Shown here: one piece after another, positions 2,090-56,741 of the stretch
Numbering within the stretch: position 1 is the stretch's first letter
Layout of the letters: each line of letters starts with the position of its first letter
From: Escherichia coli
GTDB taxonomy: Bacteria > Pseudomonadota > Gammaproteobacteria > Enterobacterales > Enterobacteriaceae
Assembly: GCF_002854065.1 (NCBI RefSeq)
Contig: NZ_CP024147.1
DNA length: 64,000 bases
Reading direction: 5' to 3' (one strand)
The notes under the pieces: generated by a model
Database searches by the model: none
What the model saw: the letters and a program-made list of their open reading frames with translations, nothing else
Told to the model about the DNA's origin: nothing
Position numbers and translations under genes: made by a program

Positions 2090-3340
2090 ATGGAAAGTAA
2101 AGTAGTTGTTCCGGCACAAGGCAAGAAGATCACCCTGCAAAACGGCAAACTCAACGTTCCTGAAAATCCGATTATCCCTTACATTGAAGGTGATGGAATC
2201 GGTGTAGATGTAACCCCAGCCATGCTGAAAGTGGTCGACGCTGCAGTCGAGAAAGCCTATAAAGGTGAGCGTAAAATCTCCTGGATGGAAATTTACACCG
2301 GTGAAAAATCCACACAGGTTTATGGTCAGGACGTCTGGTTGCCTGCTGAAACTCTTGATCTGATTCGTGAATATCGCGTTGCTATTAAAGGCCCGCTGAC
2401 CACTCCGGTTGGTGGCGGTATTCGTTCTCTCAACGTTGCCCTGCGCCAGGAACTGGATCTCTACATCTGCCTGCGTCCGGTACGTTACTATCAGGGCACT
2501 CCAAGCCCGGTTAAACACCCTGAACTGACCGATATGGTTATCTTCCGTGAAAACTCGGAAGACATTTATGCGGGTATCGAATGGAAAGCTGACTCTGCCG
2601 ACGCCGAGAAAGTGATTAAATTCCTGCGTGAAGAGATGGGCGTGAAGAAAATTCGCTTCCCGGAACATTGCGGTATCGGTATTAAGCCGTGTTCTGAAGA
2701 AGGCACCAAACGTCTGGTTCGTGCAGCGATCGAATACGCAATTGCTAACGATCGTGACTCTGTGACCCTGGTGCACAAAGGCAACATCATGAAGTTCACC
2801 GAAGGCGCGTTTAAAGACTGGGGCTACCAGCTGGCGCGTGAAGAATTTGGCGGTGAACTGATCGACGGCGGCCCGTGGCTGAAAGTTAAAAACCCGAATA
2901 CCGGCAAAGAGATCGTCATTAAAGACGTGATTGCTGATGCATTCCTGCAACAGATCCTGCTGCGTCCGGCTGAATATGATGTTATCGCCTGTATGAACCT
3001 GAACGGTGACTACATTTCTGACGCCCTGGCAGCGCAGGTTGGCGGTATCGGTATCGCCCCTGGTGCAAACATCGGTGACGAATGCGCCCTGTTTGAAGCC
3101 ACCCACGGTACTGCGCCGAAATATGCCGGTCAGGACAAAGTAAACCCAGGCTCTATTATACTCTCTGCTGAGATGATGTTACGCCACATGGGTTGGACCG
3201 AAGCCGCAGACCTGATTGTTAAAGGTATGGAAGGCGCAATCAATGCGAAGACCGTAACCTATGACTTCGAACGTTTGATGGAAGGCGCTAAACTGCTGAA
3301 ATGTTCAGAGTTTGGTGATGCGATCATCAAGAATATGTAA
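2090..3340 (+). CDS. icd: isocitrate dehydrogenase (NADP)
   Basis: 416-aa ORF with E. coli Icd sequence ([38 protein letters not shown]...); stop TAA at 3338-3340. Confidence 0.97.
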
Positions 3341-3363
3341 TCACTACATGTGTTAAATATTTA

Positions 3364-3395
3364 AACGGGCGTATAACACGCCCGTTGTTTTATTT
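3364..3395 (+). terminator. icd rho-independent terminator (8-bp stem AACGGGCG/CGCCCGTT followed by GTTTTATTT)
   Basis: Hairpin plus T-rich tract 24 bp after the icd stop. Confidence 0.6.
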
Positions 3396-3442
3396 ATGTA
3401 GATATTATTAATAGCATATCGAGCATATTTATATAAAACCCA

Positions 3443-3766
3443 TTACTTGAGCCCATACGGGCATATTTTTATAATACAACTCTTATGCAAACATTTATTT
3501 GTTATTTCGCTTTCTCCTGGAGGACACTCTTGACTGCTTTTGAGTAAACTCCATAAATTCTTGTTGAATGGTGCAATGTTATAAATAGTAATAGGATATT
3601 CTTTATCCTTAAGGATAATACCAGGCTTAACAGGTGTAAATATACTTCCAGGAGGAAGAAATATAGTAGATTGATACCAGATGATCATTTTCATATCACC
3701 CCATATGGCTGAAAAAGATATGCCGCATGTAGGTTGAATTACCGTGTCAATTACTACCCACTTCAT
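3443..3766 (-). CDS. iraM: anti-adaptor protein IraM (RpoS stabiliser)
   Basis: 107-aa ORF in an AT-rich segment immediately after icd; size and position match IraM (ycgW) as recalled for K-12. Confidence 0.75.
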
Positions 3767-4203
3767 TTGTTATGTCTTATCCCACGGTATTTAATATAGT
3801 TCATTTGGATGTTCATTTCTTTATTTTGCATATGAGTATATTACCCCTTCAAAAAATAAATTAATTAAAACGATTGCTTATATAAAACAAAACTTAAAGC
3901 AAGGAATCTCAATGGATGTTAAACAAAATGAGATTTAGTGAAAACAATAAATTATTCACTTCGTTTTAGATTTGTTTAGCTATAATGTTATACATTCAAA
4001 TGACTGAACATCCTGTAATTAAAACATAGCCTTTATGCTACTTTGTGCCAATTTGCTAAACATTATGGTTGCCTTTTTATATAACGATAATAATGAATAT
4101 AAGCATGACATGAGAATAAGGTTTCAATTTTTGAGTTATATAGGAAAGGTTTAACCTGTTCCTGGCTAAAATACATATAACTGGATGATGACTAAACCAA
4201 AAC

Positions 4204-4255
4204 ACATGTGCGTTAAGTATTGAAACGGGCGTATGGCACGCCCGTTGGTTTTATA
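4204..4255 (+). repeat. second copy of the icd-terminator-like element (ACATGTG...AACGGGCG-loop-CGCCCGTT-GGTTTTAT)
   Basis: About 50 bp closely similar to 3347-3395, including the same 8-bp stem; direct repeat flanking the iraM segment. Confidence 0.5.
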
Positions 4256-4461
4256 AATATATTAACCGTTATAAAATAACGTATAGAAAGTCAAGTGATC
4301 ACATTTCAAATATCAATTTGATAGTATTGGCCTGGTGATTATTTATGGGTAGCAATAAAAGGACAGTATTTATCATCCATAGGGATAGTCTCTGTACTTT
4401 TATTCCCATTATGCTAATGCCTTACTGAATTATGAAGCATTTCTTAAGCATCCAACTTAAG

Positions 4462-4866
4462 CTAGATTAATGGTTTATTATTTTCTACATCTTCAATATA
4501 TAAAAGCGTATTATCAATGGCGTAGTAACTGCGTTTGTTATGATTAACATCAGTAACCCAACGGAAAACGCCCGCGTCTGCCAGTGTTGAACAGTATTCC
4601 CGAAATGTAGATTTTCCGCAAATATGAAGCAATGCGGCCTCTTTTATTTTAGCAGGGTTCTTGGTCGTACTAACTTTTAACAGGTTCCTGGTTCCTCTTA
4701 ATAACAAAACCGTGTCATCGTGAGTAATAATTCTGATGTTATCCGTAGCCAGATAATAAATGTAATGTGCAATACGGTGATGTTTTAATTCTGAATAAAA
4801 CCAGGAGAAGTTTTGCTCTTTTCTCACTTGCTCAAACATCTTTTGAAAAACAACGACCTGATCCAT
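4462..4866 (-). CDS. ycgX: uncharacterised protein YcgX
   Basis: 134-aa ORF at the expected position between iraM and bluR. Confidence 0.7.
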   Translation of the reverse strand: MDQVVVFQKMFEQVRKEQNFSWFYSELKHHRIAHYIYYLATDNIRIITHDDTVLLLRGTRNLLKVSTTKNPAKIKEAALLHICGKSTFREYCSTLADAGVFRWVTDVNHNKRSYYAIDNTLLYIEDVENNKPLI

Positions 4867-5086
4867 CAGGATAATAACCTCTTGTTAGTTGTGAGACTGC
4901 GTAGTGTGCACGATCGGTTTTACCACTTCAATCTGGTCTGTCCTTTGGCTGTGATATGTACAAAGTGTGAAAGGGGGATTACCTGAATTCTCCCGGTGAG
5001 CATTTTGTAATGGACCAGCTCCGGTACAAACGCTGTTGTGGGTTCAGATTATAACATTCTGTCTAAGGGGCGGGATAAAGGTGAAA

Positions 5087-5818
5087 TTAGGGGGCATGAA
5101 AGATGACTTTATAACCTTGCTCACCCCAGTGTTGTAAAAGTTCATTTTGCCTTCTCGTTGGTGCCATGCCTGTCCAGACAATCAATGTTTGCGTCGGGAA
5201 CAGTTCCGGGCGCGGTGATTCAATGGGATCAGCAAGAACAGAAATATGCCATCCTGACAATGATAAACGCCATGCTTCCAGCCACAATCGAGCTCTCTCT
5301 TCAACATTCCACGCCATCAGAATGGCTTCTTTACCGGGCTTACGGCGCATTTCGAAAAGCGAGGCTGCTGCGTATTCAATTAGTGCGCCGTCAAACATAC
5401 TGCTCATAATGCGGGAGGTGTTGTGATCAAGCACGAGACGCTGGCGAACAGGAAGGTAAACATGATTAATCAATTGATCTACTGGGTACTCTCGACCCAG
5501 TGAAATAATTCTCGCGCGTAGTTTGGCAGGATTAGCCATACGAAGAATTGACATCATCTCTTCTTGCAGGCGGCTCCAGTCATCTTCCGTATCCTGGCTG
5601 GTGGTTTCCAGTAATGCTTTAACTTTGCCTACAGGGACGCCATTACTTATCCAACGCTTGATCTCTTCGATACGTTGTATGTCTTCTTCATCAAAGAGTC
5701 GGTGTCCGCCTTCACTGCGCTGTGGTTTTAACAAACCGTAGCGGCGTTGCCAGGCCCGGAGAGTGACAGGATTAATCCCGCAACGTTCAGCAACATCACC
5801 AATGCTGTAATAAGCCAC
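5087..5818 (-). CDS. bluR: MerR-family transcriptional repressor BluR (YcgE)
   Basis: 243-aa ORF with N-terminal MerR HTH ([32 protein letters not shown]); divergent from ycgZ operon. Confidence 0.9.
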
Positions 5819-51922: not shown

Positions 51923-52149
51923 TATTTTGCTCCAGCAATTACGGTAGGGCATGGATGATGTTCAACGACACGGCGACCACTGACTGCCGATGAATCCATT
52001 GTGCATCAGGCAAGGGAAAAGAAAATTAGCCCAAATTATGTTTCATAGTGAAACATATGCTTTAATGAATGTTCCATATTGAAACTTTTACGTGTATTAA
52101 TACTTAAAATTGCGAGCCGGAACACCTTTTGTCATAAGGGATGCGGGAT

Positions 52150-54069
52150 ATGAGTGGCGCTTTTAACAACGATGGTCGGGGCATATCTCCCTTAATTGCA
52201 ACCTCCTGGGAGCGATGCAATAAGCTGATGAAACGGGAGACATGGAACGTACCACATCAGGCCCAGGGCGTGACATTTGCTTCTATTTATCGGCGTAAGA
52301 AAGCGATGCTGACGCTCGGGCAGGCTGCGCTGGAAGATGCCTGGGAATATATGGCACCGCGAGAGTGTGCGCTGTTTATCCTCGATGAAACCGCCTGCAT
52401 TCTCAGCCGTAATGGCGATCCGCAAACCTTGCAGCAGCTAAGTGCACTGGGATTCAATGACGGCACGTATTGCGCCGAGGGAATTATTGGTACTTGTGCG
52501 CTATCGTTAGCGGCTATCTCTGGTCAGGCAGTGAAAACGATGGCCGATCAACATTTCAAACAGGCACTCTGGAACTGGGCCTTTTGTGCAACGCCGTTGT
52601 TTGACAGCAAGGGCCGATTGACGGGAACAATAGCGCTGGCGTGTCCGGTTGAGCAAACTACCGCAGCTGATTTGCCGTTGACGTTGGCAATCGCCCGCGA
52701 GGTCGGTAATTTACTGCTGACGGACAGTTTGCTCGCTGAAACTAACCGTCATTTAAATCAACTTAATGCCCTGTTAGAAAGTATGGATGATGGCGTGATT
52801 AGCTGGGACGAGCAGGGTAATTTGCAATTTATTAATGCCCAGGCGGCGCGGGTCTTGCGCCTTGACGCGACGGCAAGTCAGGGACGGGCAATCACTGAAC
52901 TCTTAACGTTACCCGCCGTATTGCAACAAGCAATAAAACAGGCACATCCGCTCAAACACGTAGAAGCCACCTTTGAAAGCCAGCACCAGTTTATTGATGC
53001 GGTGATAACCCTTAAACCGATAATAGAAACGCAGGGAACCAGCTTTATTTTGTTGCTCCATCCTGTGGAACAGATGCGGCAGTTAATGACCAGTCAATTA
53101 GGAAAAGTCAGCCATACCTTCGCTCATATGCCACAGGACGATCCGCAAACCCGCCGCTTGATTCATTTTGGTCGCCAGGCGGCGCGCAGTAGCTTTCCTG
53201 TCCTGCTTTGTGGAGAAGAGGGCGTGGGCAAGGCACTGCTAAGTCAGGCAATTCATAATGAAAGCGAGCGTGCTGCAGGTCCTTATATCGCCGTCAATTG
53301 TGAGTTATATGGTGATGCGGCACTGGCGGAAGAATTTATTGGTGGCGATCGCACGGACAATGAAAATGGCCGTCTGAGTCGGCTGGAACTGGCGCACGGC
53401 GGCACGCTGTTTCTTGAAAAGATTGAATATCTGGCGGTGGAGTTACAGTCTGCTTTGCTTCAGGTTATCAAGCAGGGTGTTATCACGCGACTGGATGCGC
53501 GGCGTTTAATACCAATTGATGTCAAAGTGATTGCTACAACGACCGCGGACCTCGCAATGCTGGTGGAACAAAATCGTTTTAGTCGCCAGCTGTATTACGC
53601 GCTGCATGCATTTGAAATTACCATCCCGCCTCTGCGTATGCGGCGTGGCAGCATTCCGGCGCTGGTGAATAACAAATTACGCAGTCTTGAAAAACGCTTC
53701 TCTACGCGGCTGAAAATTGATGACGATGCCCTCGCTCGCCTGGTTTCCTGTGCATGGCCTGGCAACGATTTTGAACTTTACAGCGTCATCGAGAATCTTG
53801 CTCTGAGTAGTGATAATGGGCGCATTCGCGTCAGTGATTTGCCGGAACATCTGTTTACCGAGCAGGCGACAGATGATGTCAGCGCCACACGCCTTTCCAC
53901 CAGTCTGTCATTTGCGGAAGTTGAAAAAGAGGCAATTATTAACGCAGCCCAGGTCACAGGCGGTCGCATTCAGGAAATGTCGGCTTTACTTGGAATCGGC
54001 CGCACTACGCTGTGGCGGAAAATGAAGCAACATGGCATTGATGCAGGGCAGTTTAAGCGCCGGGTATGA
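52150..54069 (+). CDS. dhaR: sigma-54-family transcriptional activator DhaR of dhaKLM
   Basis: 639-aa product from ATG 52150; GAF/PAS region, AAA+ domain and C-terminal HTH (..LGIGRTTLWRKMKQHGI..). Confidence 0.9.
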   Translation: MSGAFNNDGRGISPLIATSWERCNKLMKRETWNVPHQAQGVTFASIYRRKKAMLTLGQAALEDAWEYMAPRECALFILDETACILSRNGDPQTLQQLSALGFNDGTYCAEGIIGTCALSLAAISGQAVKTMADQHFKQALWNWAFCATPLFDSKGRLTGTIALACPVEQTTAADLPLTLAIAREVGNLLLTDSLLAETNRHLNQLNALLESMDDGVISWDEQGNLQFINAQAARVLRLDATASQGRAITELLTLPAVLQQAIKQAHPLKHVEATFESQHQFIDAVITLKPIIETQGTSFILLLHPVEQMRQLMTSQLGKVSHTFAHMPQDDPQTRRLIHFGRQAARSSFPVLLCGEEGVGKALLSQAIHNESERAAGPYIAVNCELYGDAALAEEFIGGDRTDNENGRLSRLELAHGGTLFLEKIEYLAVELQSALLQVIKQGVITRLDARRLIPIDVKVIATTTADLAMLVEQNRFSRQLYYALHAFEITIPPLRMRRGSIPALVNNKLRSLEKRFSTRLKIDDDALARLVSCAWPGNDFELYSVIENLALSSDNGRIRVSDLPEHLFTEQATDDVSATRLSTSLSFAEVEKEAIINAAQVTGGRIQEMSALLGIGRTTLWRKMKQHGIDAGQFKRRV

Positions 54070-54168
54070 AAGACAGAGACGATTTCTGATACATCAGAGT
54101 GATCTATATTTCATTCCGGCGCACGCTAACATTTTTCAGCATCGTTTAAGGGCTTGTCTACCCCGTAC

Positions 54169-54413
54169 TTAAAAGCTGAAGTGATATCCTCCGTTGACTT
54201 GCTTCTGATCAAAGAGGTTACCCTGCGTGTAATCCGCTTCGAGGTAGAATGTGTGCTGTTTGTTATACTGTGCACTGACTCCCACGCCGTTATTCCAGCC
54301 ATTACCTTTGAAACTGTACTTCTCCCGGGAGTTATTCAACTGATATTCTGTATCCCCTGAAAACTCGCGGATAGCGCCAGTCTTCACATAGATATTCAGC
54401 TGGCTGTTGCCTG
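54169..54413 (-). pseudogene. ycgV: C-terminal remnant of an autotransporter beta-barrel (ycgV position) truncated at the IS1 junction
   Basis: Only about 80 codons with barrel-terminal character (...QKQVNGGYHFSF) remain between dhaR and IS1; no passenger-domain coding sequence follows IS1. Confidence 0.5.
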
Positions 54414-54428
54414 GGTAATGACTCCAAC

Positions 54429-54932
54429 TTATTGATAGTGTTTTATGTTCAGATAATGCCCGATGACTTTGTCATGCAGCTCCACCGATTTTGAGAACGA
54501 CAGCGACTTCCGTCCCAGCCGTGCCAGGTGCTGCCTCAGATTCAGGTTATGCCGCTCAATTCGCTGCGTATATCGCTTGCTGATTACGTGCAGCTTTCCC
54601 TTCAGGCGGGATTCATACAGCGGCCAGCCATCCGTCATCCATATCACCACGTCAAAGGGTGACAGCAGGCTCATAAGACGCCCCAGCGTCGCCATAGTGC
54701 GTTCACCGAATACGTGCGCAACAACCGTCTTCCGGAGCCTGTCATACGCGTAAAACAGCCAGCGCTGGCGCGATTTAGCCCCGACGTATCCCCACTGTTC
54801 GTCCATTTCCGCGCAGACGATGACGTCACTGCCCGGCTGTATGCGCGAGGTTACCGACTGCGGCCTGAGTTTTTTAAATGGCGGAAAATCGTGTTGAGGC
54901 CAACGCCCATAATGCGGGCGGTTGCCCGGCAT
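54429..54932 (-). CDS. insB: IS1 protein InsB
   Basis: 167-aa ORF matching IS1 InsB (..[70 protein letters not shown]). Confidence 0.9.
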
Positions 54933-55126
54933 CCAACGCCATTCATGGCCATATCAATGATTTTCTGGTGCATACCGGGTTGAGAAGCGGTGTAAGTGAA
55001 CTGCAGTTGCCATGTTTTACGGCAGTGAGAGCAGAGATAGCGCTGATGTCCGGCAGTGCTTTTGCCGTTACGCACCACCCCGTCAGTAGCTGAACAGGAG
55101 GGACAGCTGATAGAAACAGAAGCCAC
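54851..55126 (-). CDS. insA: IS1 protein InsA
   Basis: 91-aa ORF matching IS1 InsA ([43 protein letters not shown]...). Confidence 0.9.
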
Positions 55127-55570
55127 TGGAGCACCTCAAAAACACCATCATACACTAAATCAGTAAGTTGGCAGCATCACCCATTTTTGCATTACTAATA
55201 AGAAAAAGCAAAAAACATCGATATTCATTTTTGATCAATGATTTTTCTGGCATATCGTTATTATCGTGCTATTGGTTATCATTTTCATCTTGCCAGGATC
55301 GCACGTAATCTCATTATTCGGGGACTTTATCTGCGGGATATTACCCTTCAGGTAAGTCCTTTTCTCGCCAGCATATTGGAGCGTGATCAATATTGATCAG
55401 CTGTGAAGGGGGTGATGTGTAGTGGAACAAAAACTTACGTTATATCACTACTAATGAGATATCCGTCATCTGAACACTGATGTCTTTAATTATTCTGGTG
55501 GTTCACTGTAGGCAATAAGCACAAAAGTGTAGGATGTTACAAGAATGATTAGGACTCGGTGAAATGAAAA

Positions 55571-55600
55571 ATCCACGCAATTGCGTGGATTTTATATACT
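55571..55600 (-). terminator. rho-independent terminator downstream of ychF (ATCCACGC-AATT-GCGTGGAT, then TTTTCATTTC on minus strand)
   Basis: Perfect 8-bp stem with T-rich tail, about 55 bp after the ychF stop. Confidence 0.6.
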
Positions 55601-55649
55601 TTTGCGCTCTTCATGAGATTTAGCGAAACCTCATGAGACAACAAATTAA

Positions 55650-56741
55650 TTAGACGTTGAACAGGAAGTTCATCACATCGCCATCTTTAACGATGTAATC
55701 TTTACCTTCTGCACGCATTTTGCCTGCTTCTTTCGCGCCTTGTTCACCTTTGTAATTGATGAAATCTTCAAACGAGATGGTTTGTGCACGGATAAAGCCT
55801 TTTTCAAAATCAGTATGGATTTTGCCCGCTGCCTGCGGCGCGGTTGCTCCAACCGGAATGGTCCATGCACGCACTTCTTTCACCCCAGCGGTGAAGTAAG
55901 TTTGCAGGTTCAGCAGCTTATAACCGGCACGGATCACACGGTTCAGGCCCGGCTCTTCCAGCCCAAGCTCCTGCATAAACTCGTCACGTTCTTCGTCGTC
56001 CAGTTCGGCAATGTCTGCTTCAACAGCAGCACAAACCGGAACCACAACAGAACCTTCTTTCGCCGCGATTTCACGCACCTGGTCAAGATATGGGTTGTTT
56101 TCAAAACCGTCTTCGTTGACGTTGGCGATGTACATTGTTGGTTTCAGCGTCAGGAAGCTCAGGTAACGAATAGCCGCTTTCTCTTCAGCGCTTAAATCCA
56201 GCGCGCGCAGCATACCTGCGTTTTCCAGCTGGGGCAGGCATTTTTCCAGGACCGCCAGCTCAGCTTTCGCGTCTTTATCGCCACCTTTGGCTTTCTTCTG
56301 TACGCGATGAATCGCACGTTCGCAGGTGTCGAGGTCTGCCAGCGCCAGTTCGGTGTTGATAACTTCAATATCGTCAGCCGGGTTAACTTTGCCGGAAACG
56401 TGAATGATGTTGTCATTTTCAAAGCAGCGAACAACGTGACCGATCGCTTCGGTTTCACGGATGTTGGTCAGGAACTGGTTACCCAGACCTTCGCCTTTCG
56501 ATGCGCCTTTTACCAGACCGGCGATATCGACAAATTCCATGGTCGTGGGAAGCGTACGTTGCGGTTTTACGATTTCAGCCAGTTGATCCAGGCGAGGATC
56601 AGGCATTGGTACGACGCCTGTGTTCGGCTCAATGGTGCAGAATGGAAAGTTGGCCGCTTCAATACCGGCTTTGGTCAGCGCGTTGAACAGGGTAGATTTC
56701 CCGACGTTGGGCAAACCGACGATACCGCATTTGAATCCCAT
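55650..56741 (-). CDS. ychF: ribosome-binding ATPase YchF (Obg-family GTPase-like)
   Basis: 363-aa [43 protein letters not shown]... Confidence 0.95.

Follow-up and report, generated by a model that had tools for sequence, protein, structure and literature searches.

Gene content of the locus

The window analysed here is a stretch of 64,000 nucleotides of the Escherichia coli chromosome, in which dhaK, dhaR, (ycgV), ychF, pth, and ychH follow one another. The intact left neighbour of the ycgV position is dhaR (52141-54069, plus strand), an open reading frame whose orthologous loci are annotated as dhaR, with the start annotated at about 52150 in relatives. The intact right neighbour is ychF (55650-56741, minus strand). 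Between them lie a remnant of ycgV, one IS1 element, and a part of the ycgV-ychF spacer.

The ycgV remnant (54169-54413, minus strand) is 245 bp long, and consists of the last 80 codons, the stop codon, and 2 nt of the next codon. It belongs to a type Va autotransporter β-barrel; it matches positions 352-432 of the 432 positions of TIGR01414 (E=7e-15), and shows 100% identity to the C-terminal end of YcgV (961 aa) in strain XJ34. A sequence-only reading of the window had recognised about 80 codons of an autotransporter barrel C-terminus at this place, which these two comparisons bear out. The complete C-terminal β-barrel translocator domain is absent, as only the TIGR01414 positions named above remain. 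The remnant lies between dhaR and ychF, in the same order as in K-12, XJ34, and other strains. The YcgV (b1202) of E. coli K-12 is a type Va autotransporter adhesin of Group 4, together with Ag43, AIDA-I, and TibA, and this group member is associated with biofilm formation (PMC9289746). The window shares with K-12 the ycgV position between dhaR and ychF, and its last 80 residues are identical to those of a close relative; in contrast to K-12, it keeps about 8% of the gene, and the signal peptide, the passenger domain, and most of the barrel are lost with the region for residues 1-880 of 961. Judged from its sequence, the remnant is a pseudogene fragment, and a barrel stump of 80 codons is predicted to be unable to function.

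The ychF-proximal part of the AT-rich ycgV-ychF spacer (55182-55649) is 468 bp long, non-coding, and colinear with XJ34, with a GC content of 37%. The earlier reading had placed about 470 bp of non-coding DNA before ychF. The length agrees, but the DNA precedes ychF in window coordinates only, and the spacer is transcriptionally downstream of ychF. A hairpin with T runs (55568-55593), found by the promoter/terminator scan and as an inverted self-match, is the probable ychF terminator and is intact; it was the only feature of that scan above shuffled expectation. An Rfam scan of 53500-56500 gave only two Leu_leader matches (33.6 and 31.1 bits, threshold 50), located at 55477-55635 on both strands, over the terminator hairpin. 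A Leu_leader identity was dismissed for these sub-threshold matches, which most likely reflect a chance resemblance to the terminator stem-loop.

The IS1 element occupies 54414-55181, exactly 768 bp with both ends read directly, and its transposase genes lie on the minus strand. The imperfect 23-bp inverted repeats of IS1 (GGTGATGCTGCCAACTTACTGAT / GGTAATGACTCCAACTTATTGAT) are both present: the left end is GGTAATGACTCCAACTTATTGAT, and the right end is the reverse complement of GGTGATGCTGCCAACTTACTGAT. Thus the right inverted repeat (IRR, 54414-54436), with its end GGTAATGACTCC..., is on the left of the window copy, and the left inverted repeat (IRL, 55159-55181), with its end ...GGCAGCATCACC, is on the right. 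The insA frame (54851-55126, minus strand, 91 aa) is open, as is the insB' reading frame (54429-54932, minus strand), which is joined to insA by a -1 frameshift; the A6C motif (AAAAAAC) for the programmed frameshift of IS1 is found at 54869-54875 on the minus strand. The NCBIfam IS1 transposase model NF033558 gave 143.8 bits for InsB' (cut-off 100) and 90.2 bits for InsA alone. A near-identical copy in strain CUWW06 is annotated as an IS1B-family transposase with programmed frameshift. This IS1 is the only one in the window. It has a private A at 54972, where every other copy compared at this site has G; the G-to-A change turns a Thr of InsA into Met (QPGTHQ to QPGMHQ). The intact 768-bp IS1 that had been reported between dhaR and ychF from the sequence alone is thereby confirmed, and, being intact, this copy could supply transposase.

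Extent of the deletion

The reference for mapping was XJ34, the closest IS1-free relative, which has the same haplotype as the window and shows identities of 99.8% and 99.97% over the left and right flanks, respectively. XJ34 contains an intact ycgV of 2886 bp (961 aa) and an 842-bp spacer. The left flank of the window stops at reverse-complement position 2759 of XJ34, and the right flank resumes at 5775. The missing segment (2760-5774) is 3015 bp long, and runs from ycgV codon 881 to 374 bp upstream of the start codon; it holds 2641 of the 2886 bp of ycgV (91.5%) and the 374 bp of upstream DNA. One end of the deletion coincides with an IS1 terminus: the element, kept intact, begins at 54414, directly after the base matching XJ34 position 2759. 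The comparison with K-12 MG1655 gave the same picture at about 97.5% identity. The earlier reading had supposed the loss of most of an autotransporter gene of about 2.9 kb, and had proposed an alignment to an intact ycgV locus; the alignments to K-12 and XJ34 map this loss, with one end at the IS1 terminus. They also refine it: the deletion took, in addition, the 374 bp of ycgV upstream region and one copy of a target duplication.

The 9 bp to the left of IS1 (TGTTGCCTG, 54405-54413) represent the deletion endpoint inside ycgV, and differ from the 9 bp to the right (CATTTTTGC, 55182-55190). The mismatch of the flanks noted from the sequence alone is therefore real, and no target duplication surrounds the window copy. 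A full duplication shifted by a few bases, which had been named as the finding that would speak against a deletion, was ruled out, as both flanks are colinear with XJ34, uninterrupted, and 3015 bp apart. Comparison with EC190486, CM194533, K-12, and XJ34 indicates that CATTTTTG (55182-55189) is the remaining copy of an 8-bp target duplication from the original IS1 insertion. It is single-copy at the IS1-free sites of K-12 and XJ34. IS1 is expected to carry a duplication of 8-9 bp; this is lacking at the window copy, and present in EC190486 and CM194533, with CATTTTTG on both sides. The missing duplication is the trace of a later deletion, and no argument against the identity of the element as IS1. 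These alignments put the original duplication at 8 bp, not 9.

IS1 alleles in related genomes

A survey of related genomes, as the earlier reading had suggested, was carried out on 5426 complete E. coli genomes. The right junction was searched with a 240-bp probe, and a match was defined as one piece of high identity covering at least 99% of the probe. Five of the 5426 genomes matched, and in all five IS1 ends at the same nucleotide, followed by CATTTTTGCATTACTAATAAG; the junction at the IRL end is thus common to all six alleles, the window included. The IS1 of EC190486 and CM194533 shares its nucleotide position and its orientation with that of the window, the 8-bp duplication CATTTTTG is found on both sides, and ycgV is full length. 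This simple insertion, with no loss of DNA, is the undeleted state. The other alleles have lost DNA from the IRR end, which is the start point of all the nested deletions. AZ147 has lost 277 bp, and its ycgV ORF is intact. CUWW06 and 100416 have lost 2818 bp and keep 450 bp of ycgV. The window, which keeps 245 bp of ycgV, has lost 3023 bp counted in the same way (the 3015 bp above and the left copy of the 8-bp duplication). These three alleles share the right junction, and show progressively larger losses from one IS1 end. A fixed junction with nested variable deletions is the classical signature of deletions promoted from one IS end. The survey therefore supplied the undeleted allele and two further alleles with the same right junction.

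Over 24.4 kb, the identity of CUWW06 and 100416 to the window is about 100.0%, with 0-2 differences in about 3 kb on each side of IS1, and their IS1 differs from the window IS1 by 1 nt, at 54972. Two deletion endpoints thus coexist in one lineage, that of the window and that of CUWW06/100416. The window allele cannot be the ancestor of CUWW06/100416, because they keep 205 bp more of ycgV. Two left endpoints on one junction within one lineage also mean that IS1 was anchored there before at least one deletion. Either the window carries a CUWW06-type deletion extended by 205 bp, or it carries a separate deletion from the same anchored IS1.

The left junction of the window is private, as it was found in 0 of the 5426 complete E. 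coli genomes; only 100416 reaches 80% coverage in this search, as two pieces with a 205-bp gap. It was not found in metagenome contigs or in contigs of species-representative genomes (GTDB) either. Neither of these two contig collections contains the right-junction pattern, probably because IS1 breaks short-read contigs. A junction seen in no other genome, at an element that is a multicopy repeat, might be produced by an assembly artefact, the repeat having been collapsed in a genome that actually keeps an intact locus or has one IS1 copy on each side of ycgV. This is very improbable. The same architecture, but for a slightly shifted endpoint, recurs in the independent complete assemblies of CUWW06 and 100416, both junctions of the window are clean to the base, and its IS1 is of full length.

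Mechanism of the deletion

The IRR terminus marks the exact start of the deleted interval, and from CATTTTTG on the opposite flank runs colinear with XJ34. The junction also matches that of the undeleted allele, and one IS end is shared by variable endpoints. These features are those of an IS1-mediated adjacent deletion by intramolecular replicative transposition, which probably accounts for the locus, through insertion, deletion, and a possible extension. The sequence-only reading had proposed such an adjacent deletion, and the undeleted allele, the nested series, and the XJ34 mapping lend it strong support. In the first step, IS1 would have entered the spacer where it is richest in AT, at 375-382 bp upstream of the ycgV start, with the formation of the 8-bp CATTTTTG duplication. 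This step is seen in other strains, and we infer it for the window lineage. In the second step, InsAB' would drive intramolecular replicative transposition into a ycgV target on the same chromosome, and the IRR end of the resident IS1 would be fused directly to the new target. One of the two orientations open to this reaction would excise the DNA lying between IS1 end and target, here 3023 bp (the left duplication copy, the 374 bp upstream, and 2641 bp of ycgV), which would be lost as a non-replicating circle. This would leave a single intact IS1 without target duplication, the ychF-side junction as it was, and the 80-codon stump. In a possible third step, a CUWW06-type deletion might have been lengthened by 205 bp; a separate deletion from the same anchored IS1 is the alternative. 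The dependence of the deletion on transposase is likewise inferred from the structure of the alleles.

Replicative deletions caused by IS1 are an established phenomenon. Adjacent deletions promoted by IS1 were reportedly described in gal and in plasmids by Reif and Saedler in 1975 and by Turlan and Chandler in 1995 (EMBO J 14:5410), a paper cited in PMC12428005. Like the classical deletions, the window deletion starts at one IS1 terminus, leaves IS1 intact and the other junction unchanged, lacks a target duplication, and belongs to a set of nested variable endpoints in independent isolates. It differs in being a natural chromosomal allele, which was not selected in the laboratory and is read from sequence; the mechanism would be no different. 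In the long-term evolution experiment with E. coli, a stepwise process of IS insertion, adjacent deletion, and then deletion extension was observed, in events that involved IS150 (PMC11708052). The two systems share an insertion with duplication, an adjacent deletion that removes the duplication, and an extension over time. The differences are that the experiment concerns IS150 in a laboratory E. coli B lineage, whereas IS1 in wild isolates is concerned here, and that the order of events here comes from strain comparison instead of a time series.

The same structure could be produced by homologous recombination. A second IS1 in the same orientation might have been inserted inside ycgV at 54405-54413, and RecA-dependent recombination might have removed the intervening DNA together with one IS1. 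A transposase-driven deletion and a recombination with a since-lost second IS1 leave the same sequence, so that the product is indistinguishable from the observed structure. The closest relatives are also rich in IS1, each genome matching it at about 39-40 places, and recombination between IS copies is known to leave insertions without target duplications (PMC11708052). However, an extra insertion of specific orientation would be needed for each of the three endpoints. An IS1 at the ycgV endpoint of the window was found in 0 of 5426 genomes, and in none of the metagenome or GTDB contigs. Moreover, the window IS1 shows no sign of being a chimera, with one private base compared with the IS1 of CUWW06, although this point is weak if the IS1 copies of the genome are all alike. 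Recombination between two IS1 copies is thus considered unlikely, and the adjacent deletion is preferred.

Haplotype of the insertion

A 75-bp segment of the spacer (55292-55366), bounded by 5-bp GCCAG direct repeats, serves as a haplotype marker outside the IS1 event. It is present in the window, CUWW06, 100416, XJ34, and apparently GN4741, and absent from K-12, M719, AZ147, EC190486, and PK8217. The pattern of this indel resembles the result of slippage between short repeats, with deletion in the K-12-type haplotype. The undeleted alleles that bear the duplication have a K-12-like flank without the 75-bp segment, and differ in this from the window haplotype. In the 5426 complete genomes, no undeleted IS1 allele was found in the lineage of the window.

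This absence from the window's own haplotype would be expected if IS1 had inserted in one step into the double-strand break of an unrelated deletion, with no duplication-bearing progenitor in the lineage. Insertion with deletion was proposed for IS5 and IS481 by Ngan et al. 2024, and the model is described in PMC11708052. Such an event is hardly credible for the window. The ychF-side junction is nucleotide-identical to that of duplication-bearing insertions in other strains, and the two left endpoints on one junction in one lineage would still need an IS1 anchored before at least one deletion. The two-step course, with an adjacent deletion from a resident IS1, is therefore retained.

The IS1 of CM194533 is divergent (32 nt differences), at the identical site and with the identical 8-bp duplication. 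Comparison of these copies suggests either repeated insertion at this nucleotide, or transfer or conversion of the insertion by recombination. Because the spacer is a recurrent IS1 target, IS1 may have reached this nucleotide independently in EC190486. CM194533 contains a second IS1 180 bp further, past which unrelated DNA (hypothetical genes, ISSen4) takes the place of the ychF side. This arrangement suggests an IS1-mediated rearrangement, together with re-insertion or gene conversion at the same nucleotide.

The spacer as a recurrent target of IS1

In the ycgV-ychF spacer, at least five distinct IS1 sites could be placed at base resolution; four fall in a stretch of about 36 bp, and the neighbourhood holds no fewer than six additional alleles. 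PK8217 (duplication AACAAAAAC), CUWW10 (TATCTGCA), and GN4741 have IS1 at 10-35 bp from the window site. M719, YJ4, and M505 have IS1 at about 300 bp from the window site, with a 9-bp duplication. These and the other spacer insertions (PK8277 and others) share with the window the AT-rich spacer, the orientation, and duplications of 8-9 bp; they differ in lying at other nucleotides, 10-35 bp or about 300 bp away, and most are simple insertions with ycgV intact. All the spacer insertions are oriented like the window IS1, and this count is to be read with the fact that the searches joined same-strand pieces only, and hence favour that orientation. In GN4741, where the right end of IS1 lies 28 bp from the window site, a resistance island has entered the chromosome at the hot spot: an IS4 fragment, IS26, and a class 1 integron (dfrA17-aadA5-qacEdelta1) stand in place of the ycgV/dhaR side.

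IS1 prefers AT-rich targets, and it inserted where the spacer is richest in AT, at a GC content of about 30%. By coordinate conversion, the insertion site also falls within the ycgV/ychF 'promoter island' of K-12 (PMC3661553).

The deletion endpoints were compared with the ends of IS1. Reverse-complement positions 2760-2767 of XJ34 read C and then GGTGATG, which is the exact outer 7-mer of the IS1 IRL. This sequence follows directly past the window endpoint (54413/54414), oriented like the IS1 end that now occupies this point. Only four 7-mers of the GGTGATG type occur in 3.3 kb of ycgV and upstream DNA, which gives a rough post-hoc chance of about 0.006. An IRL-like match (8/10) precedes the CUWW06 endpoint by 5 nt, and there is none at the AZ147 endpoint. 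A microhomology join between IRR (GGTAATGAC) and the IS1-like GGTGATGTC in ycgV was rejected, as the junction is without the intervening C, 1 nt off a clean join.

It might be suggested, with considerable doubt, that the spacer is a genuine and possibly orientation-biased IS1 hot spot which starts repeated erosion of ycgV, and that the endpoints are perhaps guided by sequences resembling IS1 ends. If so, the loss of the cryptic ycgV adhesin would be recurrent, IS1-channelled, and perhaps selected, rather than a one-off accident.

Biological consequences

The window offers a clean natural example of a phenomenon already known, in genes already known, and adds no new kind of event. The isolates show the empty site, the duplication-flanked insertion, and three nested deletions from one IS1 end, and thus provide a natural textbook illustration. 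The private left junction could serve as a strain- or lineage-specific marker.

The ycgV gene is dispensable and often decayed. Together with its upstream spacer, it is at least 80% present at the site in only 3931 of the 5426 genomes, a number which also dispels the doubt, raised in the earlier reading, that a ycgV-like gene might never occur there in related genomes. The routes of decay are various and independent of one another: ycgV is frameshifted in two strains (GDSC2227PM and CM194533), partly deleted in O157:H7 genomes, and down to an 87-bp trace beside ychF in many genomes. Because dhaR, ychF, and the ychF terminator are untouched in the window, the only predicted consequence of the deletion is the loss of the YcgV adhesin. 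The segment 54169-54413 should therefore be labelled as a ycgV pseudogene fragment, and the strain scored as being without the YcgV adhesin.
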